From NCBI RefSeq assembly GCF_965228935.1, contig NZ_OZ245846.1:1264528-1328527 (forward strand): a stretch of DNA of 64,000 nucleotides. Direction: 5' to 3'. This stretch comes from Ulvibacterium sp. Lineage in GTDB: Bacteria; Bacteroidota; Bacteroidia; Flavobacteriales; Flavobacteriaceae. A program made the translations under genes and the position numbers. The notes under the pieces are model-generated. The model was not told the DNA's origin. It worked only from the letters and a program-made list of their open reading frames with translations, and searched no databases. Positions 33,086 through 56,515 of this stretch are shown here, piece after piece (position 1 is the stretch's first letter; each line of letters begins with the position of its first letter).

Positions 33086-33424
33086 TTGAACTATCATACA
33101 ATGTTCAAAAGATTTTCACAATGGTTTTTCGGTATTGATGACGCTCAAAAAGAGAGAAATCCCATCAAAGAAATTCACCTAGAAAAAGGAAGAATTGAAA
33201 TAATCGTCATGCCAGACCTTGGATATGGCAAGGAATATAAAATTACCAAGTGGCATGTGCAACCTGGGCAATTGATCAAAACCGGTGATGTGGTCTGTGA
33301 TTTAGAGAACAGAACGATTTTGATGGAGTTTGAAAGCATCTACGGCGGTCGTGTATTACCGATTGTACAGTTAGACCAAAAACTTAAAGTGGGTGATGCA
33401 ATCTTTAAAATCGAAGGGGTTTAA
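33086..33424 (+). CDS. Small biotinyl/lipoyl-like (hybrid-barrel) domain protein.
   Basis: KITKWHVQPGQLIKTGDVVCDLENRTILMEFESIYGGRV resembles a lipoyl/biotin-attachment barrel fold. A candidate attachment Lys sits in KITKW, but no canonical (A/V)MKM attachment motif is present. Confidence 0.35.
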   Translation: MNYHTMFKRFSQWFFGIDDAQKERNPIKEIHLEKGRIEIIVMPDLGYGKEYKITKWHVQPGQLIKTGDVVCDLENRTILMEFESIYGGRVLPIVQLDQKLKVGDAIFKIEGV

Positions 33425-39994: not shown

Positions 39995-42900
39995 TTATGA
40001 CAATGCAGCTTTGAATTCAACATCTATAAGTGCTTTTACTTCGGGCTTGCAACTACCACAGCCCAGGCCTGCCCCGGTTTCGGAACATAATTTTGAGAAA
40101 TCGGAGCACCCGTTGCGGAGTGCCTCTTGAATGTTCCCTTCACCTACTTGGGCACAGGAGCAGACCAGCTTGCCTTTTAAAGGTTGGGTGTTTGGGGCTC
40201 CTCGTAAAAGTTCGTTGCGCTTTTCGGATAGTTCAATTTCTTCCTCTATCATTCTTTTGAACTCGGCAAACTCGTTCTTGTCTCCCATTAAAATGGTTCC
40301 CTTAAGGGTGTCGTTTTTAACGATGCATTTTTTGTAGAAACGCTTTCGCACATCCATTAGAATGATCTCCTCATAGGAACTATCATGGGCTGGTGCATTG
40401 ACCATACCAATGCTACAAAGATCCAAATCCTCAAATTTCAGGATGTTCATCGACACGGATCCGGAATAGATGCTGGACAAATCGCCTAAAATGAAATTGG
40501 CCGCGATATCGGCTTGTTGCTCAGCGGCCGAAGTAATGCCGAAAAGGGAATTTTCAAATTCCGCTATCTCCCCCAAGGCAAAGATATCTGGACGGCTCGT
40601 CTGCAAATACGAATTCACCAATACCCCTCTTCGCGTTTCCAAATCAGCTTGCTTGGCCAATTCTATATTGGGACGGGTGCCAATGGCATATACAATGGCA
40701 TTGCAGCTTATGGTACGTCCGGTTTTTAGGCTTACCAACAGGGAATGTTTGCGCTGGGCATCCTCAAAAACAGTACTTACCTCATTGTCGAAATAGAGAT
40801 GAATACCACGTTCTGCCACGTCTTCGGCAAGCAGGCGGCTGGCCACGGGATCTAGCTGACGTTCCATTAGACGGGGTGCCCGTTGGATTATACTAATGTT
40901 GATATCGATCTTTTTGAGTGAGGCGGCAAGCTCCAACCCCAAAAGCCCTCCGCCTACAATGACCACATGTTGTTCCGTGGGAGGAAGCCCGGTCTCGTAT
41001 AGGTAGCGTTTTAAGTTGTCCGCATCACTACGTTCCCGCATGGTGAATCTTCCTGGCAGGCCCATTCGCACTTCATTGGGGACAAAGGCCCTACTACCTG
41101 TAGCCATCACCAAAAGGTCATATCCATGTTGGTTGCCATGGTCATCCACTACGTATTTCTTTTGGGCATTGACTTCTGTAATTCCGTTGCCTGGATAAAG
41201 ATCTACACCCAGCTTTTCCAGCTCTCCTTGTTTCAGCTTTTGCAGGGCTTCCCAGGGCAACTCTTCATTTACATATTCAGGAAGCAATACCCTATTGTAA
41301 AATGGGTAGGGCTCTTTGGAAAAGACATGTAGTTCATCCGTTTCATTTTTTTCGCGATATGAACGTATAAAGCGGTATGCCGCCGCTCCAGCTCCGATAA
41401 CAACAATTTTTTGTTTCGGTTTTATATATTTTTCCACCCGGACGGCGCAATATTTGAAATCGGGTTCCTTGGAAATCGGGTCTACCAAATCGTTGGTCAA
41501 ATTATTGGCCCGGCTAAAATCGTTATTTAGCACTTTTCCCCAATGCATGGGAAGGAAGACCACCTTTTCGCGGATATTGAAATTGATTTTCACCTTTACG
41601 CGCACACTGCCTCTACGACTTTTTACAATTGCCATATCACCTTCTTGTAGCCCCAAAAGAAAGGCATCCACTGTGTTCATTTCCAGAAAGGGGGTCGGTA
41701 TGTGCGTCAGCAGGCGTTTTACCTTACCCGTTTTGGTTCGGGTATGCCATTGGTCCCGAACCCTTCCCGTATTCAATATCAATGGGTATTCACTATCGGT
41801 TTGCTCGGATTGGTTATACAGTTTTTTGGGAGCATTGAAATGTGCCCTGCCATCCGCGGTATGGTAGCGTTGGTCCTGAAACAATCTAGGAGTGCCCTTG
41901 TGGGCTTTATGGGGAACGGGCCATTGAAAGCTACCTTCTCGTTTAAGGCGGTCGTACGATAATCCGGATATATCGATATTGGTACCTTTGGTCATTAGGC
42001 AATATTCGTCGTATACCTCGCTGGCGCTGGTATAATCAAAACCATGATAGCCCATTTCTTGGGCAAATCGCCATAGGATTTCGGCATCGGGCAAGGCTTC
42101 CCCTGGCGCATCAACGACCTTGGGCAGGTAACTGATACGACGTTCGGAATTGGTCATTGTACCTTCTTTCTCCAGCCATCCGGCTGCCGGCAACAATAAA
42201 TCGGCATATTTGGTAGTCTCGGAATTATGTGAGATGTCCTGAACAATGACAAAATTGGCTTTTTTCAGGGCAGCCTCGACTTTATGGGCGTTGGGCATAC
42301 TCACTACCGGATTGGTACAGATGATCCAAATGGCTTTGAGCGTACCTTTTTCAAGTGCATCGAACATTTCGGTCGCGGTTAGACCGGCTTCTTTTTTAAT
42401 GGGCTTTCCGCCCCAAAACTCTTCTACTTCCTTGCGGTGTTTTTCATTGGCCAAATTACGATGGGCCGCTAATAGGCTGGCCATACCCCCCACTTCGCGA
42501 CCACCCATGGCATTGGGTTGCCCCGTAAGCGAAAAAGGACCGGAACCGGGTTTGCCAATATGCCCGGTCAAGAGGGATAGGTTCAGCAATGATACGTTCT
42601 TATCGACCCCGATAACGCTCTGGTTGAGCCCCATCGTCCACATGCTGATAAATCCTTTAGCGTTGCCGATGGCCCTAGCGGCTTTTCGGATATCGTCTAT
42701 AGGAATACCGCATTTTTTGGCTGCCTCATGAAGCGTTAGTTCAAATGCACTTTGCTTACAGGCCTCAAAGTTTGAAGTGTGTTTTTTGATAAATGTCAAG
42801 TCGATTTTTTTCTTCTCGATTAACCAACGGGCTATGGCATTGAACAGGATTACATCGGTACCGGGCAGTAGTTGTAAATGGATGTCCGCCAATGCACAGG

Positions 42901-43528
42901 TCTGGGTTTTTCTGGGGTCTACTACAATTATTTTGATATTGGGGTTTTCTTCCTTGTGCCTTTCCAACCTACGGAACAAAATAGGGTGGCACCATGCGGG
43001 GTTTGCCCCTGCAATCAAAAAGCAATCGGCCAGTTCAATGTCCGCGTAGGAAATAGGTACAGCGTCTTCACCCACGGTTTTTTTATATCCCATTACGGCA
43101 GAGCTCATACACAAGCGCGAATTCGTATCAATATTGTTGGTGCCTATAAAGCCTTTGGTCAATTTGTTGGCCAGATAGTATTCTTCGGTAAGACATTGAC
43201 CCGAAACATAAAATCCCACACTGTCGGGGCCGTGTTTTTCAATGATGCTTCCAAACACGGCGGCCGCCCTTTTTAGGGCAGTATCCCATGTTACACGTTC
43301 CAGGGAATGGTTACGGCTCCACCGCATTTCGGGATAGCGTATGCGGTCGCCGGTATCTTGGACTACGTAGTTTAGGTTCTTTCCCTTGGAACAGAGCATC
43401 CCCTTGTTTACCGGGTAGTTCTCGTTACCCTCAACGGAAAGTACCCCCTTGGTATCCTTGGTAACGGTTATTCCGCAGCCTACCCCACAATAGGAGCATA
43501 TGGTGTTATGACTTTCTTTTTTCTGCAT
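39995..43528 (-). CDS. nasA: Assimilatory nitrate reductase NasA fused to a NAD(P)H-dependent FAD oxidoreductase (NirB/NasB-like) module and BFD-like [2Fe-2S] domains.
   Basis: N-terminal 4Fe-4S motif CSYCGVGCGITV of molybdopterin oxidoreductases. MopB core and molybdopterin dinucleotide-binding region. FAD/NAD(P) Rossmann folds VVIGAGAAAY and VVIVGGGLLGLE. C-terminal CSCAQV...GCGSC. Confidence 0.85.
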   Translation of the reverse strand: MQKKESHNTICSYCGVGCGITVTKDTKGVLSVEGNENYPVNKGMLCSKGKNLNYVVQDTGDRIRYPEMRWSRNHSLERVTWDTALKRAAAVFGSIIEKHGPDSVGFYVSGQCLTEEYYLANKLTKGFIGTNNIDTNSRLCMSSAVMGYKKTVGEDAVPISYADIELADCFLIAGANPAWCHPILFRRLERHKEENPNIKIIVVDPRKTQTCALADIHLQLLPGTDVILFNAIARWLIEKKKIDLTFIKKHTSNFEACKQSAFELTLHEAAKKCGIPIDDIRKAARAIGNAKGFISMWTMGLNQSVIGVDKNVSLLNLSLLTGHIGKPGSGPFSLTGQPNAMGGREVGGMASLLAAHRNLANEKHRKEVEEFWGGKPIKKEAGLTATEMFDALEKGTLKAIWIICTNPVVSMPNAHKVEAALKKANFVIVQDISHNSETTKYADLLLPAAGWLEKEGTMTNSERRISYLPKVVDAPGEALPDAEILWRFAQEMGYHGFDYTSASEVYDEYCLMTKGTNIDISGLSYDRLKREGSFQWPVPHKAHKGTPRLFQDQRYHTADGRAHFNAPKKLYNQSEQTDSEYPLILNTGRVRDQWHTRTKTGKVKRLLTHIPTPFLEMNTVDAFLLGLQEGDMAIVKSRRGSVRVKVKINFNIREKVVFLPMHWGKVLNNDFSRANNLTNDLVDPISKEPDFKYCAVRVEKYIKPKQKIVVIGAGAAAYRFIRSYREKNETDELHVFSKEPYPFYNRVLLPEYVNEELPWEALQKLKQGELEKLGVDLYPGNGITEVNAQKKYVVDDHGNQHGYDLLVMATGSRAFVPNEVRMGLPGRFTMRERSDADNLKRYLYETGLPPTEQHVVIVGGGLLGLELAASLKKIDINISIIQRAPRLMERQLDPVASRLLAEDVAERGIHLYFDNEVSTVFEDAQRKHSLLVSLKTGRTISCNAIVYAIGTRPNIELAKQADLETRRGVLVNSYLQTSRPDIFALGEIAEFENSLFGITSAAEQQADIAANFILGDLSSIYSGSVSMNILKFEDLDLCSIGMVNAPAHDSSYEEIILMDVRKRFYKKCIVKNDTLKGTILMGDKNEFAEFKRMIEEEIELSEKRNELLRGAPNTQPLKGKLVCSCAQVGEGNIQEALRNGCSDFSKLCSETGAGLGCGSCKPEVKALIDVEFKAALS

Positions 43529-43574
43529 TCGATAGGAAAAAAAGCTCCCTTTTAAATGAGAAAATTAGAAATTT

Positions 43575-43594
43575 ACGTAGTAATACGTAGTAAG
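43575..43594. promoter_or_regulatory. Tandem direct repeat TACGTAGTAA-TACGTAGTAA upstream of nasA. Candidate operator of the nitrate-assimilation regulon.
   Basis: Read directly. Related TACGTA pairs occur at 50058-50076, 50097-50105, 51078-51087 and 51112-51130, and a single copy at 45771-45779. Confidence 0.45.
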
Positions 43595-43659
43595 AATATA
43601 GTAAAAGTATGGGCTTAAACCGAAGGATTCGTAATAATTCGCCCTTAATTTTGATAGGT

Positions 43660-44352
43660 TCAAACTTGCACCAATCGATGCTTTCTCGCTTTTTTGGAAA
43701 GATCCATCAAATTTTTCACCTGCATTTTTTTCATGAGGTTAAACCTATGGGTTTCTATGGTGCGCTTACTGTTCTGGAGTTTTTCGGAAATCTCTTTGTT
43801 GGTAAATCCGGCAAGAACCAATTCCAGTACCTGTAGCTCTTTGTTGGTAAGATCAAAAGGGATGTCCTTATCCTTTTTTGAAAGCTGAGGTGTTACTTGA
43901 TTTTTTGGGCTGATTATATTGTTGACCAATACATTTGAAATATCCCCACTGAAGTATTTTCCACCATCCTGAACGGCATGGATGGCCTTTAAGAATTCGT
44001 TTTTGTCCGTGTCCTTTAGAAGATATCCCGAAGCGCCCGCTTGAACGGACTTTAGAATATATTCCTCAGAATCATGCATGGATAGAATAATACATTTGGT
44101 TTCGGCCGCCTGGGATTTATTTAACCGCTCTACCGTTTCAATTCCACCAAGTTCGGGCATCCGAATGTCAATGATTAAAATATCCGGAGTCTTTTCGCTT
44201 ACCATTTCCAAGGCCTCATAGCCGTTGGATACCTCTCCTACGACCTCCATATCCGATTCTTCTTCCAATAACGCCCTGATACCATCTCGGACCAAGGCAT
44301 GGTCATCTGCAAGAATAATTTTGATCGTATTGCCTTGGTCAGGTTCGGACAT
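43660..44352 (-). CDS. NarL/LuxR-family two-component response regulator.
   Basis: REC domain (IILADDHALVRDGIRALL...DILIIDIRMPEL) plus a C-terminal LuxR HTH (LTNKELQVLELVLAGFTNKEISEKL). Confidence 0.85.
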   Translation of the reverse strand: MSEPDQGNTIKIILADDHALVRDGIRALLEEESDMEVVGEVSNGYEALEMVSEKTPDILIIDIRMPELGGIETVERLNKSQAAETKCIILSMHDSEEYILKSVQAGASGYLLKDTDKNEFLKAIHAVQDGGKYFSGDISNVLVNNIISPKNQVTPQLSKKDKDIPFDLTNKELQVLELVLAGFTNKEISEKLQNSKRTIETHRFNLMKKMQVKNLMDLSKKARKHRLVQV

Positions 44353-44451
44353 AGTACAAAAATAACGGATTTTGTTCAGGTTTTACAAAACACAAAGGAT
44401 CACCCCGACAGTTTAGTCGACATGACCCTTGCGAAGCAAAGCTTTTTAGTA

Positions 44452-45768
44452 TTATTTATCCGATTTTGCCGTTGTGAAGAGGGTGGGTTTTATAATGATC
44501 ATGGCCCAAGCCCAGTTTTGTGAACCTTTGAAATCCACAGGTTCCGTAGCACCCAAACGGGCGATTTCCAATTCTTCCAATCCATCTGCGGCAAATAATT
44601 GGGAATACCCTATTTGAAGTGCAAAATCCTTGAATTTTTGGGTCAATACCAGATCCAGTTCGGTACCAAGGCCGCTTTCCCCACTCGGGGTATCTTCCAT
44701 GCCCTGAAAACTCATCAACTTTGAAAAAAGCGTTGTTTTTTCACCTAACTTAAAGGTTGCACTGGCATGGATATCCAAGAGACCAACGTTGTTGATCCAG
44801 TTACCGACGTAAAAATGATCCATAAATCCATTGAACTTATGGTTGGTGCCAAAATGAGGTAAGAATGCTTCCGTACCCCCGGTAGATGGATCATCCCCAC
44901 TAATGGCTTCGATACCAAGCCCTAATTTGGTTTTTGGACTTACGCTATAAGATGCTTCCAACCCTAATAGATAGGCTCCATCGATATCAATCCCTGTAAC
45001 AAATTCCCCGGTCTGTAGGAATGCGTTTCCCTCTAAACCAAACTTTCCTTTTTTGTAAGTCAAGTGGGTGCCCGCCGTAAACGTATTTCTTATGTCGCTA
45101 GCGTCACCTGTTTCCGTATCGATTTGTTGGAACCCTAAATTGGCCAGGACTAGACTAGCACTAAACGCCTTGAATTCTTTCTTGGCATAAAGATGCTGCA
45201 TGGTCTTGTATTGAAAAGGGTTGGCCGAATTGAACTCGGTCCCGGAATTTTTGAAACCGAACAATGGTCCACCAAGGTTATCCAAATCTTGATTGAATGC
45301 CAAACCTACATCCAGCATAAAGCCTTCCTGACGAAACTTGATCATCGCTAAATCATGGTATCGTCCTTGCTGCGCCCAGTCCAATCCGCCAAAATAACGC
45401 TGATCATCATAGGACAGTACCTGGCGGCCCAATTTTGTTGACCACCCGCCACCAAATTGCAATTCGCCCCACGCTTCAAATAGAGAAAAGGAGTTGTTCC
45501 CATCCACAGGAACAAGCTGTGGGTTTTCACCCCAAATTTGAACATCTTGGACATTAAGATATATCTGATATGTTTCGGTTTTAAAACCTACTCCGATCCT
45601 TGCTCTGGTATTTGTTACAAAGCCGGCGTCGACTCCTTCCCGCTGTAGGAACTGAAAACCGTTTCTGTACTCGGTTCTTGGCCTAAATTGCGCATCCAGA
45701 CTAAACTGTGCAGATATAGACTGAACCGATAGGATAACTAGGATAAATAAACTATAACCTCTTTTCAT
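44452..45768 (-). CDS. Outer-membrane beta-barrel porin (alginate-export / AlgE-like family), probably for nitrate/nitrite uptake.
   Basis: Signal peptide MKRGYSLFILVILSVQSISAQ. Alternating amphipathic beta-strand composition ending in an aromatic C-terminus. Sits inside the nitrate-assimilation cluster. Confidence 0.55.
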   Translation of the reverse strand: MKRGYSLFILVILSVQSISAQFSLDAQFRPRTEYRNGFQFLQREGVDAGFVTNTRARIGVGFKTETYQIYLNVQDVQIWGENPQLVPVDGNNSFSLFEAWGELQFGGGWSTKLGRQVLSYDDQRYFGGLDWAQQGRYHDLAMIKFRQEGFMLDVGLAFNQDLDNLGGPLFGFKNSGTEFNSANPFQYKTMQHLYAKKEFKAFSASLVLANLGFQQIDTETGDASDIRNTFTAGTHLTYKKGKFGLEGNAFLQTGEFVTGIDIDGAYLLGLEASYSVSPKTKLGLGIEAISGDDPSTGGTEAFLPHFGTNHKFNGFMDHFYVGNWINNVGLLDIHASATFKLGEKTTLFSKLMSFQGMEDTPSGESGLGTELDLVLTQKFKDFALQIGYSQLFAADGLEELEIARLGATEPVDFKGSQNWAWAMIIIKPTLFTTAKSDK

Positions 45769-45770
45769 AA

Positions 45771-45779
45771 TACGTAGTT
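45771..45779. promoter_or_regulatory. Single ATACGTAGT copy upstream of the porin gene.
   Basis: Read directly. Same core as the tandem motifs elsewhere in the cluster. Confidence 0.25.
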
Positions 45780-45797
45780 TTAGGTGGTTATTCTTTT

Positions 45798-46631
45798 TTA
45801 ATGTTCCAAAAAGTCAATTAGGTGTTTCCGGTATTTGTAGTAATCGTCATGCTCCAATACCGCTTTTCTAGTTCGCGGACGTTCAAAGTTTATGGTAAGG
45901 ACGTCCCCAATTTTGGCACGTGGGCCACTGGTCATCATAACCACCCGATCCGCTAGGAAGATGGCCTCGTCCACATCGTGTGTGATCATGACCGCCGTAA
46001 TCTTTTCCTTGTTCCAGATTTCGATGAGGATATCCTGTAGCTCACCACGCGTTAGTGAATCGAGCATCCCAAATGGCTCGTCAAGCAGTAATACCTTGGG
46101 CTTGATGGCAAAGGCCCGTGCAATGCCCACACGCTGCTGCATTCCTTGTGAGAGCTCGTTGGCTTTTTTGTCAAAAGCGTTCCCAAGTCCTACTTTATGC
46201 AGGTAGTATTTGGCAATGTCCTTACGCTGTGCTTTTGTGGCATGTGGGAATACGCGATTTACACCCAGCAATACATTTTGTAGTGCGGTCATCCAGGGCA
46301 TCAAACTGGGCGACTGAAAAATGACCCCGCGATCGGGCCCGGGCCCCTTAATGGCATTGCCCAGTACGGCGATATTTCCTTCAGAGATGGGATTGAGCCC
46401 CGCTATCATGGATAACATGGTTGTTTTGCCGCATCCGGAATGACCGATAATTGTCACAAACTCTTCCTTTAGGATCTGAAGGTTGAGATGTTCCAGTACC
46501 ACATAGTCACCTTTTGGGGTGGGATACACTTTTTTTAGGTCGCGCAAATCGAGCATCACCTTATCCGAAGGAAATGAAATACCATTTTCGTGCGTTTCTT
46601 TTGCCGTAATCTCCTTAACTACCATAACCAT
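45798..46631 (-). CDS. nrtD: Nitrate/sulfonate/bicarbonate-type ABC transporter ATP-binding protein.
   Basis: Walker A GHSGCGKTT. Signature LSQGMQQRV. Walker B LLLDEP. Confidence 0.8.
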   Translation of the reverse strand: MVMVVKEITAKETHENGISFPSDKVMLDLRDLKKVYPTPKGDYVVLEHLNLQILKEEFVTIIGHSGCGKTTMLSMIAGLNPISEGNIAVLGNAIKGPGPDRGVIFQSPSLMPWMTALQNVLLGVNRVFPHATKAQRKDIAKYYLHKVGLGNAFDKKANELSQGMQQRVGIARAFAIKPKVLLLDEPFGMLDSLTRGELQDILIEIWNKEKITAVMITHDVDEAIFLADRVVMMTSGPRAKIGDVLTINFERPRTRKAVLEHDDYYKYRKHLIDFLEH

Positions 46632-46636
46632 TGTTT

Positions 46637-47500
46637 TTAGGCCACAAAACTTTTTGGAGTCAGTTCGGGCAATTCATAGATTTCCTGGGATACTGCTTTG
46701 CGCTCTTCTCCGATACCCATTAGATATTCGATAATGGCATTTCTCGTCTTTTTATAGACCGGATTATCATTTAATGCAGTTTTATCCCTTGGACGCCCGA
46801 TGTCGATTTTGAATTCCGGCCCCAAGGTCGCCCTTGGTCCGGGGCGTAATGGAATAATACGGTCTGCCATATAAATCCCTTCGTCCACATCATTGGTTAT
46901 AAGCAGGGCGGTACGCTTGTCCTGGCTCCAAATTTTTAAGATTTCGTCCTGAAGATTACCACGTGTGAGGGCGTCCAAAGCCCCCAAAGGTTCGTCCATA
47001 ATGATCATCTCCGGGTTCATGGCCAAGGCCCGGGCTACGGCTACACGCTGCCGCATACCTCCGGATAGTTCCTTAGGCCTTTTGTTGATGGCAGCTGATA
47101 GGTTTACCATTTCAACGTAACGGGCTACCCTTTCTTTTCTGAAACTTTTCTTTTCTCTAGGGAATGCTTCCTTTACGGCCATGGCCACATTTTGCCCAAC
47201 GTTCAACCAGGGTAATAAGGAATAGTTTTGAAAGATTACTCCACGATCGTGACTTGTGCCCACCACAGGCTTTCCTTTAAAAAGGACCTCTCCACTGGTT
47301 GGTCGTAATAATCCATTGATCAAGTTTACCAATGTGGTCTTGCCACTTCCGGTAAAACCTACAATGGCCACAAACTCTCCCTCTTCGATGTTCAGGTTGA
47401 TATTGGTCAAGACCTCCGTGGCCTGTTTTCCTTCCCCGTATGTTTTATGGATGTTCTTTATTTCCAAATATGCCATGACGTCTTTTTTAAGCTGTTGCAT
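46637..47500 (-). CDS. nrtC: Nitrate ABC transporter ATP-binding protein.
   Basis: Walker [10 protein letters not shown]. Signature LSGGMRQRV. Walker B IIMDEP. Confidence 0.8.
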
Positions 47501-48593
47501 TTTTATTAAAGGACACCATGTTTTGAATGGTCAACATGATACGGTCCAGTAGGAAACCAATGATTCCGATAACGAACATGGCCACAATGATCTTGGAGTT
47601 GGAATCGTTGGCTCCGTTCTGGAACTCTTCCCAAACGAAAGACCCCAAACCCGGGCTTTGTGCCAAAAGCTCGATCGCGATTAGGACCATCCATGCGACG
47701 GAAAGCGTAATCCGTAATCCGGTAAAAATCAAGGGTAATGAGGAAGGTAGAATCACTTTGAATACCTTCTGTAGAGGCCCTAACTTTAACACCTTGGCCA
47801 CATTGATGTAATCTTTGTCCACGGATGAAACCCCCATGGCGGTATTGACCAAGGTTGCCCACATGGCACATAGCCCTACGCTAATAAATGATATGATAAA
47901 GGCACTATCCGAATTGGAATCCTTTGTCATTGTTTTTACGATCATGAATACCAAGAGCAACCAAACTACTGGGGAAACGGGCTTGAATACCTGGATTAAC
48001 CAATTGAAGGAATCGCGCAGGGTTTCACTCAGTCCGATTACAATTCCTATCGGTACCGCAATCAGGAAGGCCAATATGAATCCGGCAAAAACAGTTTTTA
48101 AGCTGGTAAAAATCTGATCTACGAAGGAAGGTCGACCTGTGTAGGTGATGGGATCCTTTCCTTCAGCAATACGTTTTTCATTTAAGGCAGCGGTCTTCTC
48201 TTCAAAAGCCAATTTATCGGCACTAATTACCCTGTGGTCCGCAATTAGGGTATTGAAGGATTCCCAAACCTGCGTGGGCGAAGGCAATGTGTTGGGTTGA
48301 CAACTAATGTCACCCGATACGATGCACGCTTGCATGGCGTCTGCAGCTTCTTGCCCTTGATCGGTCAAGGCCTTTTGTATTTTATAATCCGCTTCAATAT
48401 TGTACAGTGCCTTGGCTCCCATATGCCAAAGCCCAACGAAAAGTAAGATGGACATCATGGGTACAACCACCTTCCTCAGTATTGTTCGAAGATCGAACTT
48501 GGGGGTTCTTAGCTTGAATTTGGCCAATGCGGCCTTAACGGCACTACCCAGCTTCAATTCCTGCGTTTTGTTTACGATTACACTTTGCTTCAT
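47487..48593 (-). CDS. nrtB: Nitrate ABC transporter permease.
   Basis: Multi-transmembrane protein. Gene order between the ATPase and binding-protein genes. BPD-type permease composition. Confidence 0.7.
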
Positions 48594-48617
48594 AATTGTA
48601 ATTTTACCGTGGGTGTC

Positions 48618-50003
48618 TTATAAGGAGGGCTCCTCTTTATTTCCGATCTTGAAGCTGTTGATATAGCCTATGGGATCCTTGGCATCATAGGTGTTATCAT
48701 CAATAAAATCTGAAGTGGCAGGCTTATATCCATCCGTAACCGGAATGTCAGAGGCTGGAATACGTCCTTCCGCTACCAATAGGTCGGCGGCCTTTTTCCA
48801 GATATCAGGTCGATATATGTCTTTAATCGTCTCTTCGTACCATGCTGCCGGTTTTGGTTCGGGAATCTGCCCCCATCTCCGCATTTGGGTCAAGAACCAG
48901 ATTCCATCGGAATAGAAGGGATAGGTAGCGTTATATTTGTAAAATACATTGAAATCGGGCATGGAACGTTTATCGCCTTTTTCAAATTCAAAGGTTCCTG
49001 TCATGGAATTCGCCAGGACAACCTCATCGGCACCTACGTATTGGGGCATGGAAAGGATTTTCACGGCTTCGGCCCGATTGCTGGGTTCATCCAACCATTT
49101 TCCAGCACGAATCAAGGCTTTGGTCACGGCAATAGCCGTATTTGGATTCTGCTCCACAAACTTTTTGGTCATTACAAATACCTTCTCCGGGTTGTTTTTC
49201 CAGATGTCGTAGTTTGTGGTTACCGGCACGCCAATACCTTTAAATACGGCCTGTTGATTCCAAGGCTCTCCTACGCAGTAACCATAAATAGTCCCAGCTT
49301 CCAAAGTAGCGGGCATTTGCGGCGGCGGGGTAACGGATAGCAATACCTCGGCGTCGATTTGTCCTTGTACGTTATCGGCAGTATACATTCCGGGGTGTAT
49401 GCCCGCAGCGGCCAACCAATAACGGATTTCGTAATTATGCGTGGATACGGGGAATACCATTCCCATTTTAAAGGGTTTCCCACTGTTCTTGTATTCTGAA
49501 ATCACAGACTTCAACGCATCGGCCTTAATGGGATGTAAAGGTTTGCCGTCCGCGCCCGTGGGAACATTGGGTTTCATTTTAGACCATACGTCATTGGACA
49601 CAGTGATTCCATTGCCGTTAAGATCCATAGAAAAAGGGGTAACCAATTCCGCTTGCCTACCAAATCCGGCACCCGCAGCGATGGGTTGCCCGGCCAGCAT
49701 ATGGGATCCGTCCAATTGACCATCGATTACACGATCCAAAACATTTTTCCAGTTTGACTGCGCCTCTACGGACACAAAAAGGCCTTCATCCTCAAAGAAG
49801 CCTTTTTCCTTGGCAATGGCCAAAGGCGCCATGTCTGTCAGTTTAATGAATCCAAAGGTCAATTGAGGCTTCTCTATCTCTAGGGAACCACTGGGTATTT
49901 TGGCCTCGGCCGTTTCTTTCGTTTTTTTCTCGGCCTTTCCACTGCAGCCCATTGCAGCGAGCAAAAGAACTAAGCCAAGGATTTTTGTTACAATTGATTT
50001 CAT
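48618..50003 (-). CDS. nrtA: Nitrate/nitrite ABC transporter substrate-binding lipoprotein.
   Basis: Lipoprotein signal [10 protein letters not shown]. Size and position at the head of the nrtABCD operon. Confidence 0.7.
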
Positions 50004-50057
50004 AATATGTATGTTTTAATGGGTTACTTATTATCACAACAAACATACAGTATTATT

Positions 50058-50105
50058 TACGTATTAATACGTAGTATTTAATAAAAAATACCTCGAACTA
50101 CGTAT
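50058..50105. promoter_or_regulatory. TACGTATTAATACGTAGTA tandem motif plus a downstream ACTACGTAT copy in the nrtA promoter region.
   Basis: Read directly. 10-bp periodicity between the TACGTA cores. Confidence 0.45.
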
Positions 50106-50259
50106 TTTTATGTGGATGGAAATTCCTCGAATCTAAAAATTGAAAGATGTCAAAAAAAGGACTTGAATATTAATGAATATGAAATCGGAAAGGTTTTGGA
50201 ACTGACAGGAAACGGATACTAAGACTCGGATATACGTATAATTATATATACCATGACGC

Positions 50260-51036
50260 TTAAATACGGGAGTGCAAAACACGGTGTACTTCGTCCTCAA
50301 AGAAGAAAGGGTGCTCTAAAACAACACTGCCTACCACAATGATGCCCGGTTTTGAAATATCTATATTTTGAAACATGGTCTCAACGTTGCCCAATGTCCC
50401 GATGAGGCAACTTTCGTTCTCCAATGTTCCATTTTGAATGAGTGCAACAGGGGTGGATTCTCCCCTATATCTTGTGATTTCACGGGCTATTTCGACAAAT
50501 TTACGAACCCCCATTAAAATCACCATCGTAGCGGACGATTGGGAGGCCAATATCAGATCCTCCGAAAAGGAACCGTCCCTTTTGGTGGCCGTCATTACCC
50601 AGAAACTGCTGGCCGCAACTCTTTTGGTCAATGGAATACCTTGGCCCGAAGGCACGGAAATAGCACTTGATACGCCAGGGACTACCTCAACGGGAATGCC
50701 AAAAGATTCCACATGTGCAATTTCCTCCGAAGCTCTCCCGAAAACAAAAGGATCGCCACCCTTTAAACGTACCACATGTCCATAGGCAAAAGCATACTCA
50801 ACCAGAAGCCTGTTGATTTCCTCCTGTTTGGCATAGTGTTTCCCGTAACGTTTCCCTACGTATACTTTTGGAATATCGTCACTAATACCATATAATAAAT
50901 CAATGTTGACCAAAGCATCATATAGAATGGCATTGGCACTTTGCAATACCCTTGAACCTCTAATAGTTATAAGGTCTTTAGCCCCTGGCCCGGCCCCGAC
51001 CAAGGTGACTTTTGGAGAATTTTGTGATTGTATCAT
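50260..51036 (-). CDS. cobA: Uroporphyrinogen-III C-methyltransferase (siroheme biosynthesis for nitrite reductase).
   Basis: VTLVGAGPGAKDLITIRG...ILYDALV N-terminal SAM-binding signature of CobA/CysG methyltransferases. Confidence 0.85.
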   Translation of the reverse strand: MIQSQNSPKVTLVGAGPGAKDLITIRGSRVLQSANAILYDALVNIDLLYGISDDIPKVYVGKRYGKHYAKQEEINRLLVEYAFAYGHVVRLKGGDPFVFGRASEEIAHVESFGIPVEVVPGVSSAISVPSGQGIPLTKRVAASSFWVMTATKRDGSFSEDLILASQSSATMVILMGVRKFVEIAREITRYRGESTPVALIQNGTLENESCLIGTLGNVETMFQNIDISKPGIIVVGSVVLEHPFFFEDEVHRVLHSRI

Positions 51037-51077
51037 TCCGATTATTTATGGATGGCTTTTACCATTTTTGCAACGAA

Positions 51078-51130
51078 ACTACGTAATTATTTAGATATAT
51101 TCACTTATTAAATACGTAAAAATACGTAAT
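51078..51130. promoter_or_regulatory. ACTACGTAAT plus ATACGTAAAAATACGTAAT tandem motifs in the divergent cobA/nirB promoter region.
   Basis: Read directly. Confidence 0.45.
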
Positions 51131-51161
51131 ATTGTTGTGGAAATAATCAAAGCATGGCACT

Positions 51162-53663
51162 ATGAAAACTGTTATTGTCATCGGAAACGGAATGGTGGGT
51201 TATAAATTTTGTGAAAAATTCGTAGCTCGGAAAACAAGCAAAGAGTTTAGATTACTTGTCTTTGGCGAAGAGCCGAGAGTAGCTTATGATAGGGTACACC
51301 TGAGCGAATATTTTGAGGATGGCGACGAAGAAAAACTAACTCTGGCACCACGGCAATGGTATAAGGAACAAGGTATTGAGCTCTTTACCAATGAGCGCAT
51401 AACGGATATTGAAAGGAAAAACAAAATGGTAACCACCTTGAGCGGAAGGGCTTTTTCGTATGACTTTCTGGTATTGGCCACCGGCTCTGCACCTTTTGTA
51501 CCCCCCATTGAAGGAATGGATAAAAAAGGGATATTCGTGTACCGTACCATAGAGGATTTAGAGCATACCATGAGCTATGCTTCCAATATCAGGAAGGGTA
51601 GGGCGGCTGTTCTGGGAGGAGGACTTCTAGGGCTCGAAGCGGCAAAAGCAGTAAAGGATATGGGGCTTGAACCTCATGTGGTGGAGTTTGCCCCAAGATT
51701 GATGCCGCGTCAATTGGATGCTGATGGCAGTGCGGCTTTGGAACGTAAAATGAAAGAATTGGGCATTTCCGTCCACCTTAACAAGGCAACACAACAAATT
51801 CTGGGTAATGGAAGTATTCAAGGTATGGAGTTTTCGGAGGGAGAAACCCTTCGTGTTGATATGCTGATTATTTCTGCCGGTATCCGTCCCAGGGACGAAC
51901 TGGCCAAATCCTGTAATCTTGAAATTGGTGTCCGCGGTGGGGTTGTTGTGGATCGTACTATGCGTACCTCGGATTCCGATATTTTTGCGATTGGAGAAGT
52001 GGCCCTCTACAAGCAAATGATTTACGGACTCGTTGCACCGGGCTATGAAATGGCACAGGTAGCCGTAGATCAGATTTTGGGTGGTGAGACCATAATGGCC
52101 GAAAGCGTTGATATGTCCACTAAACTGAAACTCATTGGTGTAGACGTTGCGAGTTTTGGCAACCCTTTTACTACGGAAGAAGAAGCCCATGCCATTGTCT
52201 TTGAAAACAAACTTCAAGGACTTTATAAACGAATCAATATTTCCAAGGATGGGAAGAAGCTGCTTGGAGGAATTCTAGTAGGCGATGCTTCGGACTATAA
52301 TATGTTATTACAATTACAACAGAATGAAATGCCATTGCCCGCTAATCCCGAGGATTTGATTTTGGGTGCCCGCAATGGGGAAGAATCCGCCATGGGAAAT
52401 GTTCTTGATTTACCTGACAAAGCGGTGGTCTGCTCCTGTGAATCGGTGACCAAAGGAGATATTTGTTGTGCCGTTACCGAAGAAGGCCTTGAGAGCGTAA
52501 AAGGCATTGCCAAGACCACCAAGGCCACTACGGGTTGTGGTGGATGTAAGCCGATGGTGACGGATTTGGTCACCGAGAGCCTGAAATCTTTGGGCAAGAC
52601 CGTAAAAGTACGGATCTGTGAACACTTCAATTATTCAAGACAAGAGCTATACGATATCGTTAAACTTCGTAATATCCAGGATTATGACGAGCTGCTCGAT
52701 ACCGTTGGGCAAGGAGATGGTTGCGAAGTCTGTAAGCCCGCCGTTGCCGCCATCTTTGGCAGTGTGTACAACGAAACGGCAAACAGACAGGAGACCATTC
52801 AAGATTCCAACGACCGGTACTTGGCGAACATTCAACGTAATGGGACATACTCCGTGGTGCCCAGGGTTGCGGGAGGTGAAATTAGCCCAAAACAATTGAT
52901 GGCCCTTGGGCGTATTGGAATGAAATATGACTTGTACACCAAAATTACGGGAGGACAACGCATCGATATGTTCGGGGCACAATTGCACGAGCTCCCCCTG
53001 ATTTGGGAGGAACTTATCAAGGAAGGGTTTGAAAGTGGTCATGCCTATGGAAAAGCTTTACGGACGGTAAAAAGTTGTGTAGGCTCCACCTGGTGTAGAT
53101 ACGGAATGGACGAAAGTGTGAGTTTTGCCATTGAAATAGAAAACAGGTATAAAGGTATTCGCTCTCCCCATAAAATGAAAGGAGGTGTTTCCGGGTGTAT
53201 TCGCGAATGCGCAGAGGCACGATGCAAAGATTTTGGTTTTATTGCCGTGGAAGGCGGATGGAATGTCTATGTCTGTGGAAATGGCGGTGCCAATCCCAAG
53301 CATGCGGAGCTTTTGGCTGAAAAAGTAGATAAGGAAACAGCAGTAAAATATGTTGATCGTTTCTTGATGTACTACATCAAAACGGCTCCGCCCCTTACTA
53401 GAACGGCAGCCTGGTTGGAAAAATTGGAAGGTGGCATCACCTATTTGAAAAATGTGGTGATACATGACGCACTAGGTATCGCGGAGGAACTTGATCTTGA
53501 AATGCAACGATATGCCGACACCTACAAATGTGAATGGAAAGAGGCTGTGGAAACCCCTGAAATACGGTCGCGCTATACACATTTTGTAAACTCTGACGAG
53601 CAGGACAGCAATATTGAATTTGTACCTATGCGAGGGCAAAAAATGCCCAAGGCCTGGACATAA
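51162..53663 (+). CDS. nirB: NAD(P)H-dependent assimilatory nitrite reductase large subunit.
   Basis: N-terminal FAD fold VIVIGNGMVGYKF and a second Rossmann fold AAVLGGGLLGLE. BFD-like Cys motifs. Siroheme/4Fe-4S region CVGSTWCRYGM ... CIRECAEARC. Confidence 0.9.
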   Translation: MKTVIVIGNGMVGYKFCEKFVARKTSKEFRLLVFGEEPRVAYDRVHLSEYFEDGDEEKLTLAPRQWYKEQGIELFTNERITDIERKNKMVTTLSGRAFSYDFLVLATGSAPFVPPIEGMDKKGIFVYRTIEDLEHTMSYASNIRKGRAAVLGGGLLGLEAAKAVKDMGLEPHVVEFAPRLMPRQLDADGSAALERKMKELGISVHLNKATQQILGNGSIQGMEFSEGETLRVDMLIISAGIRPRDELAKSCNLEIGVRGGVVVDRTMRTSDSDIFAIGEVALYKQMIYGLVAPGYEMAQVAVDQILGGETIMAESVDMSTKLKLIGVDVASFGNPFTTEEEAHAIVFENKLQGLYKRINISKDGKKLLGGILVGDASDYNMLLQLQQNEMPLPANPEDLILGARNGEESAMGNVLDLPDKAVVCSCESVTKGDICCAVTEEGLESVKGIAKTTKATTGCGGCKPMVTDLVTESLKSLGKTVKVRICEHFNYSRQELYDIVKLRNIQDYDELLDTVGQGDGCEVCKPAVAAIFGSVYNETANRQETIQDSNDRYLANIQRNGTYSVVPRVAGGEISPKQLMALGRIGMKYDLYTKITGGQRIDMFGAQLHELPLIWEELIKEGFESGHAYGKALRTVKSCVGSTWCRYGMDESVSFAIEIENRYKGIRSPHKMKGGVSGCIRECAEARCKDFGFIAVEGGWNVYVCGNGGANPKHAELLAEKVDKETAVKYVDRFLMYYIKTAPPLTRTAAWLEKLEGGITYLKNVVIHDALGIAEELDLEMQRYADTYKCEWKEAVETPEIRSRYTHFVNSDEQDSNIEFVPMRGQKMPKAWT

Positions 53664-53739: not shown

Positions 53740-54117
53740 ATGATATCAGAACTGAATACCTATCAAGCAACTAAGAAAGAAAAAGTGACGGTTTGGTTCA
53801 AGGCCGCTGAAATTTCCAAATTCCCGAAAAATGGAGGGGCTTGTGTAAAATATAAGGATAAGCAGATTGCGGTATTTAATTTTACCCGAAAAGGAGAATG
53901 GTACGCTTGTCAAAATTTATGTCCCCATAAAATGGAAATGGTCTTGTCTAGAGGGATGATCGGCGGGGAGGGTGAGCATCCAAAGGTAGCTTGCCCTCTA
54001 CATAAAAATACCTTTTCGTTGAAAACCGGTGAAAATCTCAATGGTAGTTTGGACGCTATCGCAACCTATCCCATAAGAATTGAGAACAACTTTGTGTATA
54101 TTGGCTTTTCGGAATGA
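53740..54117 (+). CDS. nirD: Nitrite reductase small subunit (Rieske-like).
   Basis: 125 aa. Motifs CQNLCPHK ... CPLHKNTF. Lies immediately downstream of nirB. Confidence 0.8.
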   Translation: MISELNTYQATKKEKVTVWFKAAEISKFPKNGGACVKYKDKQIAVFNFTRKGEWYACQNLCPHKMEMVLSRGMIGGEGEHPKVACPLHKNTFSLKTGENLNGSLDAIATYPIRIENNFVYIGFSE

Positions 54118-54284: not shown

Positions 54285-56129
54285 ATGGAAAGCAAACAAC
54301 AAGCATTGGACATTGCTACTTTCTTAAGGGTAAGAAAGTGGTATCTATTGGCCATTGCCGCTATTGCCCTGACCATAATTGTTGCACAGATCCTGATCCA
54401 ACAACATCTCAATTCGCAATTGAACGATTCCCGTGTTATTAACGTCGCGGGTCGACAACGTGCCCTTAGCCAAAAACTGGTCAAAGAAGCCTTGTTATTA
54501 CAGACTTTGGATTCCAATAAGTTTAGCCGGCAAGAAATCATAAACAATTTAAGCCAGACCCTTTTCACTTGGAAAACTTCCCATAACGGCCTACAAAAAG
54601 GCAATGATAGTATTGGTCTTCCGAGGGAAGGGAATGTAGCCATATTGCGGTTGTTCGCGGATTTGAATCCTCATCATGAGGCTATGGTCCTAGCCGCGGA
54701 AACCATTATCAACGATGGGGATAATCCGGATATGCGCTCCACTTCGCACCAAGAAGAACTACAGGTGCTTTTGGCCAATGAGCAACTGTTTTTGACCAAA
54801 ATGGATGCCATCGTAAACGAATACGATATTCAGAGCAAAGAAAAACTGCAAAGACTCAAATTCAAAGAGTACCTATTGCTTGCTTTTTCATTGTTGATAT
54901 TGTTTTTGGAGGTAGTGTTTATTTTTAGACCGTTGTCCATTCAGATTCGGGAGACCATATCAAAGTTGATACAAAATCAAAAAAAGTCGGAGGCCACCGC
55001 TTTTGAGGTCAAGCGACTTTTTACGGAGAAGGAAAAATCCTTACAACAGTTACAGGAACTCAATTTTGTAATAGACAATGCGGCCCTCTTCGCAAGCACA
55101 CGGAAGGATGGTACCGTGGTCTTCATCAGCAAAAAGTTTTTGGCCCTTTTGGAACGGGAAGATATTCAATTGAACATACCGTTGTCCGAGATCCTTACCG
55201 AGAACCCCGGTCAACAACAGTATCTTAGGGAAGTCTTGACCAGCAAACGCAAGAACATCCGAACCGAGGAAATTAAGATTGAGACAAAAACAGGAAAGCG
55301 TCTTTGGCTGGATATGTCGATTATCCCCATGCACCTATCGAGTTTGGAACAAAGTATATTGATTTTGTGTTCGGACATTACCGAACGCAAGAAAAATCAA
55401 ATGAAAGTTGAGGAGCTTACCAAACAAAACTATGAGGAACGCATGCGTCAAAAGCAATTGCAGGCCAGTCAAATCGTGGAAGGGCAGGAAGAGGAACGAA
55501 AGCGTATTGCCAAGGATATACATGACGGGATAGGGCAGATGCTGACCGCTTTGAAATTCAACATAGAATCCATCAACACGGACCAAAAGGAAAGGACCAA
55601 AGAAAAGATCGCGTATTTAAAAACGTTGACGGCCGACCTTATAAAGGGAGTACGTACCGCCACTTTTAACCTTACCCCGCCGGAGTTGGAAGACCACGGT
55701 ATTTTTCCGGCACTTCAAAAAATGACCATCGAACTAAGCAAACTTACAGGAAAGAATATTTTGTTTGAAAACAAGGCCGGTGGAAGTATTCGGTTCGATT
55801 CCCTTGCGGAAACCAACATTTATAGGGTGACCCAGGAGGCGGTGAATAATGCGATCAAATATGCCGATGCCAATTATATTTTGGTGTCCATCAATTACGT
55901 AGACGGCCTTTTGAGTGTAGTCATTGATGACGATGGCAAAGGTTTTGACTCCTCTATTTTGGACAAGGTGGCCAAAAATAATAGTGAGGGAGGTATGGGT
56001 GTCTTTTTTATGAAAGAACGCATTAATTATATCAATGGGCGCTTGTTTATCAATTCAATACCTGGGGAAGGAACTCGGGTTACCATAAATTACAAGGCAA
56101 GGGAAACGGTATTGAATGGAGTAGACTGA
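54285..56129 (+). CDS. NarX-like sensor histidine kinase: N-terminal nitrate-sensing (PilJ/NarX-type) periplasmic domain, a PAS-like region, and a HisKA_3 + HATPase_c core.
   Basis: Transmembrane segments flank a periplasmic region. VAGRQRALSQKLVKEALL (P-box-like). H-box ERKRIAKDIHDGIGQMLTAL. C-terminal ATPase G-boxes. Confidence 0.8.
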   Translation: MESKQQALDIATFLRVRKWYLLAIAAIALTIIVAQILIQQHLNSQLNDSRVINVAGRQRALSQKLVKEALLLQTLDSNKFSRQEIINNLSQTLFTWKTSHNGLQKGNDSIGLPREGNVAILRLFADLNPHHEAMVLAAETIINDGDNPDMRSTSHQEELQVLLANEQLFLTKMDAIVNEYDIQSKEKLQRLKFKEYLLLAFSLLILFLEVVFIFRPLSIQIRETISKLIQNQKKSEATAFEVKRLFTEKEKSLQQLQELNFVIDNAALFASTRKDGTVVFISKKFLALLEREDIQLNIPLSEILTENPGQQQYLREVLTSKRKNIRTEEIKIETKTGKRLWLDMSIIPMHLSSLEQSILILCSDITERKKNQMKVEELTKQNYEERMRQKQLQASQIVEGQEEERKRIAKDIHDGIGQMLTALKFNIESINTDQKERTKEKIAYLKTLTADLIKGVRTATFNLTPPELEDHGIFPALQKMTIELSKLTGKNILFENKAGGSIRFDSLAETNIYRVTQEAVNNAIKYADANYILVSINYVDGLLSVVIDDDGKGFDSSILDKVAKNNSEGGMGVFFMKERINYINGRLFINSIPGEGTRVTINYKARETVLNGVD

Positions 56130-56149: not shown

Positions 56150-56515
56150 ATGAAAATACGGATTAAAGGAAACTCGGTACGTTATCGATTGACCAAACCA
56201 GAAGTAGCGGCTTTCTGTCAAAAAGGTCGATATGAGGAAACAACGAACTTTGGCGCAAAAACCCTAATCTATGCCCTTGAGGGCAAAGCGGGAATCAAGG
56301 AATTGGAGGCCGATTTTACGGGGGACACCATTACCCTTTATCTTCCCCAGGAGGAACTCTTAACTTGGGCCGATAACGACCGCGTAGGCTATGCCAATTC
56401 GGTGGACTGGAACGATAGCGGTGCGCTTTCGCTTTTGGTGGAAAAGGATTTTACGTGTTTGGACAATACCATAGAAGATCAATCCGATAATTACCCAAAT
56501 CCAAAACTGTTATAG
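56150..56515 (+). CDS. Hypothetical 121-aa protein.
   Basis: ORF only. Confidence 0.4.
   Translation: MKIRIKGNSVRYRLTKPEVAAFCQKGRYEETTNFGAKTLIYALEGKAGIKELEADFTGDTITLYLPQEELLTWADNDRVGYANSVDWNDSGALSLLVEKDFTCLDNTIEDQSDNYPNPKLL

Follow-up and report, generated by a model that had tools for sequence, protein, structure and literature searches.

The 64-kb window analysed here (64,000 nucleotides of contig NZ_OZ245846.1 from an Ulvibacterium sp. of the family Flavobacteriaceae) contains a nitrate-assimilation gene cluster whose promoters carry a 16-bp dyad of two TACGTA hexamers. On the reverse strand, the cluster includes nasA (39995-43528), whose 1177-aa product combines NasA with an NAD(P)H reductase, the gene for a NarL/FixJ-type response regulator (RR) with REC and GerE helix-turn-helix (HTH) domains (43660-44352), a gene for an Alginate_exp-type outer-membrane porin (44452-45768), nrtDCBA (45798-50003) and cobA (50260-51036). 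On the forward strand, it includes nirB (51162-53663), nirD (53740-54117) and the gene for a sensor histidine kinase (54285-56129) whose domains are PilJ-N, PAS, HisKA_3 and HATPase. A preliminary description made from the sequence alone had already named the nasA fusion, nrtABCD, cobA, nirBD, the porin, the RR and a NarX/PilJ-type-sensor kinase, and the Pfam search agreed with all of these identities. The dyad is kept at the nitrate/nitrite-assimilation promoters of approximately 100 related genomes.

A total of 20 copies of TACGTA were found in the window compared to 6.1 ± 2.5 expected, and none of 100 shuffles reached 20. Ten of these copies were in intergenic regions of the nitrate-assimilation locus and the remaining 10 were near expectation. 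The exact 16-mer TACGTA-N4-TACGTA was present three times compared to 0.01 expected from dinucleotide-preserving shuffles, and all three copies were in the nasA, nrtA and nirB/cobA promoters. These were TACGTAttacTACGTA (43574..43589, reverse strand, read towards nasA) in the RR/nasA intergenic region, TACGTAttaaTACGTA (50058..50073, reverse strand) in the cobA/nrtA intergenic region and TACGTAaaaaTACGTA (51113..51128, forward strand) in the cobA/nirB divergent region. A search with TAMGTA-N4-TACKTA and one mismatch allowed showed no further site across the window. Tandem TACGTA pairs had been reported at the same three places, with correct coordinates except for one start that was off by one (43575 should be 43574). 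The pairs had been described as repeats in direct orientation; since TACGTA is self-complementary, such pairs, with their 10-bp period, are equally 16-bp inverted repeats, here with the symmetric inner flanks T7 and A10.

In addition to the dyads, single hexamers were found at 50099..50104 (reverse strand), 31 nt upstream of the start of the nrtA dyad, and at 51080..51085, 33 nt upstream of the nirB dyad, where it is the distal element for nirB and the proximal element for cobA. Both had been noticed before (near 50097-50105 and 51078-51087) and both were conserved in orthologous promoters. Another conserved element, ACTTTTA (ACTWTTA), was identified approximately 12 nt upstream of the nasA dyad (43602..43608, reverse strand). 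Two other single copies of TACGTA were located 2 nt upstream of the porin start codon (45771..45776) and just downstream of cobA (50233..50238), the latter absent from the preliminary description.

Comparative data came from 80 loci with 10-kb flanks from approximately 20 genera, which were fetched via alignment of RR orthologues and annotated by tblastn with the window proteins. The genera included Flagellimonas/Muricauda, Maribacter, Croceivirga, Croceitalea, Zobellia, Cellulophaga and Sediminicola, and the cluster was syntenic. A total of 269 sites with ≤1 mismatch were found in the 80 loci, nearly all intergenic and at the same promoters: 71 between the RR gene and nasA, 74 between cobA and nrtA, 51 between nirB and cobA and 28 between cobA and the porin gene, the last in loci where a narK gene stands in place of nrtABCD. 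Within 250 nt upstream of the genes, TAMGTA-N4-TACKTA was present in 69 of 73 loci for nasA, 65 of 65 for nirB, 46 of 47 for nrtA and 60 of 60 for cobA, and in none of 73 loci for the porin gene and none of 79 for the RR gene. The exact 16-mer was kept in 62 of the 73 orthologous nasA promoters, and the nasA ATG was 40-55 nt downstream of the dyad in nearly all loci. Cluster DNA (1.13 Mb) contained 260 sites with ≤1 mismatch and the flanks (332 kb) contained 9, most of which preceded accessory cluster genes encoding truncated haemoglobin, globin or a NarK-type major facilitator superfamily transporter. Overall, the dyad stayed at the same promoters across the approximately 20 genera and the flanking sequence drifted.

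The single hexamers differed in their conservation. The distal hexamer of nirB was kept 33 nt upstream of the 16-mer in 50 of 61 distinct promoters, and the flanks of the 51080 hexamer were also conserved (CAACAAGAA-TACGTA-ATTATTT). The distal hexamer of nrtA was kept as ATAAAAATACGTAG in many loci, and distal hexamers in nrtA promoters were found at 20-22 or 29-31 nt. TACGTA was present within 60 nt in 0 of 69 distinct orthologous porin upstream regions, and within 70 nt after the cobA stop codon in only 6 of 62 loci. The hexamers at 45771 and 50233 were rejected as parts of the system and are probably due to chance; the porin-upstream copy that had been counted with the system exists but probably does not belong to it. 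The element ACTWTTA was specific to nasA promoters, with its TT invariant in all 66 distinct promoters even where the RR gene was not adjacent; it may act as an UP-like element or be bound by a second regulator (nitrogen status?).

Two placements of the element in other genomes were also recorded. In several genomes, globin genes (truncated haemoglobin, Bac_globin, or single-domain Globin) were found behind the same dyad (L005:294-759, L021:2584-3001, L047:3603 and L044:290-758), which links nitric oxide detoxification to the nitrate-assimilation regulon. In many nirB genes of other genera, TACGTA overlaps or directly precedes the start codon (TACGTATGAAR or TACGTAattATG; L053, L055, L056, L057, L059, L066 and L073, and also L099, L106 and L112), an odd position for a promoter element.

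The consensus of the element was TAMGTA-N4-TACKTA and its commonest form TACGTAT-NN-ATACGTA. Among 316 distinct sites, T1, A2, G4, T5, A6, T11, A12, C13, T15 and A16 were 92-99% conserved (G at position 4 in 290 sites), and most of the variation came from C3→A (69 sites) and G14→T (59 sites). Position 7 was T in 233 sites and position 10 was A in 190, and the commonest spacer was TTAA. The NarL heptamer has the consensus TACYYMT, and the half-site of the dyad matched it at six of seven positions at best, with G4 where C or T is expected. The motif had been said to differ from the classical NarL heptamer; the difference is real at G4 and smaller than had been claimed. The arrangement of two inverted heptamers separated by 2 bp is the 7-2-7 geometry, and NarL dimers prefer 16-bp dyads of this type (PMC4549865).

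The symmetric positions 3 and 14 varied independently, with 10 double variants compared to approximately 13 expected and 107 single-sided C3A or G14T variants that break the pair. This indicates that the half-sites are read independently, as by a protein, which is the natural explanation and makes a structural role unlikely. A structural role would mean that the 16-mer is not a DNA site bound by protein but works as an RNA or DNA hairpin (an attenuator, a NasR/NasT-like antitermination target or a terminator). The 16-mer can be folded as a 6-bp stem with a 4-nt loop, and leader hairpins are reported to control nitrate-assimilation operons of proteobacteria (PMC3795266, PMC10783516). However, the stems were weak (-4.4 to -4.6 kcal/mol, z-scores of -0.5 to -2.3), the pair 3/14 showed no compensatory covariation and it was the stem sequence itself and not the pairing alone that was kept. 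Most sites were upstream of or overlapping the -7 box and would not be transcribed, and no Rfam match was found in the window. The RR carries a GerE HTH and not an ANTAR domain, and Pfam showed no ANTAR domain in any cluster protein. The hairpin was rejected on these grounds, and we consider it almost certain that the element does not work in this way.

The -7 box of flavobacterial sigma-A promoters is TAnnTTTG at -12 to -5, and the study of flavobacterial transcription start sites describes the sigma-A motifs only as variants of this box (PMC9723704). Positions relative to the start were read here from the match to the -7-box consensus in the sequence and refer to putative starts. The putative -7 box of nrtA, TATGTTTG (50040..50047, reverse strand), is a perfect TAnnTTTG 10 nt downstream of the dyad, which places the dyad at a predicted -38..-23 or so; offsets of 10-11 nt between dyad and box were the commonest among nrtA promoters. 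For nirB, a -7-like box TAATATTG (51127..51134, forward strand) shares its TA with the last TA of the dyad, which is thus predicted at about -26..-11, and a fused TAnnTTTG with ≤1 mismatch was found in 56 of 61 distinct nirB promoters, often perfect as TACTTAgtTTTG. The -7-like box of cobA, TAGTTTCG (51074..51081, reverse strand), shares its TA with the 51080 hexamer, and the fused box in orthologues was TATTCTTG (29) or TAGTTTTG (9). For nasA, position-specific counts in 66 distinct promoters were obtained for two overlapping candidates, a fused TAaaTTTC (TAAATTTC, 43568-43575, reverse strand) whose TA is also that of the dyad, and TAATTTTC (43560-43567, reverse strand), 6 nt downstream; the nasA dyad is predicted at -26..-11 or -34..-19, depending on the candidate. 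Overall, the offsets between dyad and -7 box clustered at -2, 8-11 and 20 nt, which is a helical phasing. A -33 TTG at the expected spacing was found in none of these promoters, and none is possible in the nasA promoters because an invariant ACTACG occupies the position. As a pointer to the sign of control, the missing -33 TTG is weak.

The fusion of the proximal hexamer to the -7 box in many promoters would also be seen if TACGTA were part of an extended core-promoter element (TACGTAnnTTTG) for RNA polymerase or a special sigma factor, which together with an accident of AT-rich composition forms an explanation that we regard as very improbable. Against a core-promoter element, hexamers were also found downstream of the box, in dyads located one turn upstream of it and in distal copies at 31-33 nt, and among the fetched loci they were restricted to one gene cluster. 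Against an accident of composition stands the number of dyads expected from the shuffles given above.

A different layout was observed in genera with both narK and nrtABCD, here called type B. In these loci, a conserved TAyATTTG box is located 7 nt upstream of an nrtA dyad of the form TAAGTA-N4-TACGTA, in many cases with a TACGTA hexamer ahead of the box. The ATG follows at a distance of only 14-24 nt, and the dyad would be at about +2..+17. Such nrtA loci include L007:4331, L010:4328, L015:4302, L017:4346, L021:4319, L044:4269, L055:4286, L062:4287, L065:4155 and L068:4309. The layout could represent repression of the ATP-binding cassette (ABC) transporter during narK induction.

The RR of the window was 100% identical to an Ulvibacterium protein at NCBI and was the only DNA-binding protein or transcription factor conserved in the cluster across the 80 loci. 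Pfam identified Response_reg (6.3e-30) and GerE (5.1e-18, residues 168-218). The receiver residues D16, D17, D62, S91 and K113, as expected of the acidic pocket, phospho-acceptor Asp, Ser/Thr and Lys of a receiver domain, were invariant among orthologues, as was the recognition helix. The C-terminal GerE domain, a four-helix LuxR-type HTH, aligned to the output domain of NarL, and E. coli NarL was the best solved homologue (3e-33). The score with the NCBIfam NarL equivalog NF007935 was 144.8 bits, below the cut-off of 250. The NarL helix TVKVHVKH aligned to TIETHRFN of the RR, and the base-contacting residues of NarL, K188, V189 and K192, aligned to E, T and F. The helix is consistent with a related geometry but a different half-site.

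For the kinase, Pfam showed PilJ (PF13675, 2e-15) at residues 42-150, HisKA_3 (4.6e-12) and HATPase_c (4e-13), the last two being the domains of NarX/NarQ-type kinases, and a PAS domain; no HAMP domain was detected. The sensor motif INVAGRQRALSQ resembles the P-box, and the kinase probably senses nitrate or nitrite because this P-box-like motif is in a putative periplasmic domain. Scores with the NCBIfam equivalogs were 80.9 bits for NarQ (cut-off 553) and 66.4 bits for NarX (cut-off 578). The kinase and the RR are members of the NarX/NarL family and not orthologues of NarX and NarL. The earlier suggestion that the RR and kinase of the locus use the motif probably stands, as the RR is the sole conserved regulator, and no orthology to NarX and NarL can be added to it.

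Other regulators were considered as binders. The AraC-family gene neighbouring the cluster (56547-57671) was matched in one of the 80 loci (L067), many loci being too short on that side, and was rejected. A Crp/Fnr-family regulator with an N-terminal Cys-rich stretch and cNMP_binding and HTH_Crp_2 domains was found between narK and nrtA in 15 of the 80 loci (L021:3328-4095; the others include L007, L010, L015, L017, L046, L055, L062, L065, L068, L069, L075, L077 and L078). In L086, dyads are also found in front of the Crp/Fnr-like gene. Some lineages may thus have a second layer of regulation (oxygen or NO, nitric oxide?). The gene was absent from the window and was rejected as the general binder.

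More broadly, the dyad might be bound by another dimeric factor encoded elsewhere, such as a Crp/Fnr-family or global nitrogen regulator, with the RR reading something else. A 16-bp dyad with half-sites spaced by 10 bp would fit many HTH dimers, the Crp/Fnr-like gene of some genera lies in the cluster behind dyads of its own and the base-contacting residues of the RR differ from those of NarL. However, this gene was present in a minority of loci and the motif in essentially all of them, and no second motif common to all nas promoters was seen that the RR could read instead. Hexamers that occur singly or in threes with 10-bp phasing are a typical feature of the heptamer arrays of the NarL family, unlike the strict palindromes of Crp/Fnr. 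In the fetched loci, the sites kept to the cluster, whereas those of a global regulator would be scattered, and they followed the RR orthologues into distant lineages with rearranged gene order. Overall, we judge a binder other than the RR to be unlikely.

The distant lineages were reached by a metagenome scan seeded with distant RR representatives, which produced another 80 loci (L081-L160). The nearest 50%-identity representatives of the RR were 46-55% identical to it and several kept RT[IV]E[TS]HRFN. In L081-L120, most regulators were 46-70% identical to the window RR, kept RT.E.HRFN and adjoined nirBD, nasA, narK or nrtA. The kinase gene was often immediately upstream in these loci (adjacent to the regulator gene, for example, in L081-L087, L099 and L102). 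A total of 54 dyad sites were found in 438 kb of L081-L120, in front of nitrogen genes. L107, with regulator, kinase and nasA, had no site; its nasA promoter lies beyond the fetched DNA, which makes this locus uninformative. Zero sites were found in L121-L160, which hold paralogues 35-42% identical with other helices and no nitrogen genes, and where approximately 0.05 sites are expected per locus and many loci are GC-richer. An AEVHRFN subgroup had mostly the symmetric variant TAAGTA-N4-TACTTA; this variant was also found in the IETHRFN group and covariation of helix and motif is suggestive only. In front of some distant kinase-regulator operons located after nirBD, one hexamer was found joined to a -7-like box (TTACTTActTTTA or TACGTActTTG; upstream of L081:8286, L085:498 and L086:8326), which suggests autoregulation of the kinase-regulator operon in those lineages and not in the clade of the window (0 of 79).

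Taken together, the element is probably the operator of the RR of the cluster and would give pathway-specific, probably nitrate/nitrite-responsive control. The RR is linked to the operator because the two are co-localised and the site has a geometry typical of the family. The preliminary description had seen in the hexamer pairs an operator for a dimeric or tandem-binding regulator, and the conservation of the sites, their restriction to the cluster and their co-occurrence with the recognition helix of the regulator support this view. A dimer of the RR (43660-44352), phosphorylated by the cluster kinase (54285-56129), would occupy the 16-bp dyad, with extra protomers on the phased single hexamers. 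The predicted regulon in the window comprises nasA with a downstream rubredoxin/NIR-like gene, nrtABCD (whose transcript probably extends through the porin and RR genes), nirBD and cobA; elsewhere it would add narK, globin genes, the Crp-like gene and sometimes the kinase-regulator operon. The proximal hexamer would share its TA with the -7 box TAnnTTTG at nirB, cobA and probably nasA, or lie one helical turn upstream of it at nrtA.

Several points weigh against this interpretation. The element itself, its statistics and conservation, its confinement to the cluster, its occurrence together with the regulator and the lack of hairpin covariation are direct observations; that the RR binds it, which signal it answers to, where transcription starts and whether control is positive or negative are inferred from these. 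The differing base-contact residues mean that binding specificity cannot be transferred from NarL. Helix and motif are both invariant in the 80 close loci, which leaves no true test of covariation there, and the paralogue control shows background only.

With respect to the sign of control, activation by the RR is a reading to which we give about an even chance. By analogy with PhoB at the pho box, the phosphorylated RR would sit on one face of the helix, over the spacer and where the absent -33 element would be, and would recruit or stabilise RNA polymerase, so that the genes are on when nitrate or nitrite is present. RRs encoded beside their pathway mostly act as activators and bind in the phosphorylated state. 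Activation is also favoured by the lack of a -33 element, by a placement at nrtA that resembles the pho box and by the helically phased offsets. Against it, we know of no RR that activates from a site overlapping -12, and the dyad of type-B nrtA genes is predicted downstream of the start. The Zobellia AusR operators that overlap the -7 box, as single, double or triple copies, serve for repression, a tested case from a flavobacterium (PMC7641319). For NarL, repression of frdA comes from a 7-2-7 site at -4/+6, and the sites for activation of narG are at -89 and -195 (PMC4549865).

These same precedents would favour a repressor working through the same operator and the same RR, a possibility that we rate below even but nearly as high as activation. 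In this case, the RR would occlude RNA polymerase at the -7 box when nitrate and nitrite are lacking, and relief would come from the kinase switching to a phosphatase on binding its ligand or from a lower affinity of the unphosphorylated RR. All sites are inside the predicted footprint of the polymerase, the nirB dyad overlaps the TA at -12/-11, the dyad of type-B nrtA is predicted downstream of it, and many of the -7 boxes are a perfect TAnnTTTG, as for intrinsically active promoters. However, a repressor would go against the general rule for RRs encoded beside their own pathway and would require a kinase that is active without its ligand. In addition, the helical phasing (-2, approximately 10 and approximately 20 nt) is not needed for simple occlusion, and the lack of a -33 TTG in any promoter suggests dependence on an activator. 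A particular form of activation, in which a NarL-family RR acts from the -12 TA of the -7 box to about -36 with an array of protomers standing in for the -33 element, is a tentative idea that we consider rather doubtful. If true, it would be a position that no characterised RR is known to use and a distinct activation geometry for the unusual sigma-A of Bacteroidota, and nitrate assimilation in this phylum would have its first dedicated two-component system for sensing nitrate or nitrite.

Other genes of the cluster were functionally annotated. The rubredoxin/NIR-like gene (38545-39984, reverse strand) encodes a 479-aa product that has a rubredoxin at its C-terminus and a weak ferredoxin-like region (NIR_SIR), and was present in all loci. 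The NasA fusion, which joins a molybdopterin nitrate reductase to a Pyr_redox_2/Rubredoxin_C/BFD NAD(P)H reductase module, was also kept in all loci. In nearly all loci, nrtD and the RR gene flank the gene for the Alginate_exp-family porin. As this gene lacks its own dyad, it probably shares a transcript with nrtABCD, and its product is a candidate nitrate/nitrite channel. A gene for a 121-aa DUF7009 protein (56150-56515, forward strand) lies directly 3' of the kinase gene and was kept in many loci; the protein may be part of the signalling module. Finally, an unrelated 1658-aa protein (DUF3686 'ATPase involved in DNA repair', DUF7902, AAA) is encoded at 33393-38369, just outside the nitrate cluster.

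Much of the organic matter from algae is consumed by marine Flavobacteriaceae, some of which can assimilate nitrate. To our knowledge, the regulation of nitrate assimilation in these bacteria has not been described, and the pathway-specific regulators known to us (NasR, NasST, NtcA/NtcB, GlnR/NnaR and TnrA) belong to other phyla. A literature search found no description of the motif or of a flavobacterial nitrate-assimilation regulator, which is not proof of absence. The analysis provides a highly conserved candidate operator, a candidate sensor-regulator pair and a predicted regulon of nasA, nirBD, cobA, nrtABCD, narK, globins and the Crp-like regulator. The operator could be used to predict nitrate-responsive genes in flavobacterial genomes and metagenomes and to build nitrate-responsive reporters. 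In addition, because of where the sites stand with respect to the -7 box, they offer a test case for the action of transcription factors at the poorly understood -33/-7 promoters of Bacteroidota.

Compared to known systems, the predicted control resembles that by NasS/NasT and NasR in being pathway-specific and nitrate/nitrite-responsive for nas and nir genes (PMC3795266, PMC10783516). Unlike those systems, which are reported to use leader hairpins and ANTAR proteins, the cluster has no ANTAR domain and no covarying hairpin, and its sites are at or upstream of the -7 box. A parallel in site placement is AusR of Zobellia galactanivorans, from the same family of bacteria, where one to three operator copies overlap or abut the TAnnTTTG of the promoters of one pathway and where the operator was also found by motif search across marine flavobacteria (PMC7641319). 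AusR differs in being a one-component repressor of the GntR/FadR type that is released by alginate oligosaccharides and reads TKGTN2-3ACMA, whereas the candidate binder here is a two-component RR.

The pho box of PhoB has two repeats approximately 10-11 bp apart, replaces a missing upstream element and is located approximately 10 bp before the downstream hexamer; similarly, the nrtA dyad ends 10 nt before TATGTTTG. Unlike PhoB, which is an OmpR/winged-helix protein on head-to-tail direct repeats, the candidate here is of the NarL/FixJ family and its site is a dyad, and the sites at nirB, cobA and probably nasA reach the -12 TA, which pho boxes do not.

Close similarity was also seen to NarX/NarL (and NarQ/NarP) of E. 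coli. Both are two-component systems with a HisKA_3 kinase, whose sensor is periplasmic and of the P-box type (putatively so in the window), and a REC and GerE regulator, both have sites of inverted heptamers with a 2-bp gap and the ends TAC...GTA (TACCCCTAAAGGGGTA compared to TACGTATTAATACGTA) and both have extra single heptamers or hexamers in variable arrangements. The system of the window differs in its half-site (TAMGTAT and not TACYYMT, with an invariant G4 and C3 as the most variable position), in the contact residues of the helix, in scoring below the equivalog cut-offs and in a kinase with PAS and no detected HAMP. It also differs in its predicted control of assimilatory nas, nir and nrt genes in an aerobic member of the Bacteroidota and not of respiratory genes, and in placing its sites in the core promoter of a -33/-7 type promoter. 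Overall, a NarL-family two-component system with a 7-2-7-like operator is familiar; new here are its half-site, its position in the core promoter, its role in assimilation and its occurrence in this phylum.

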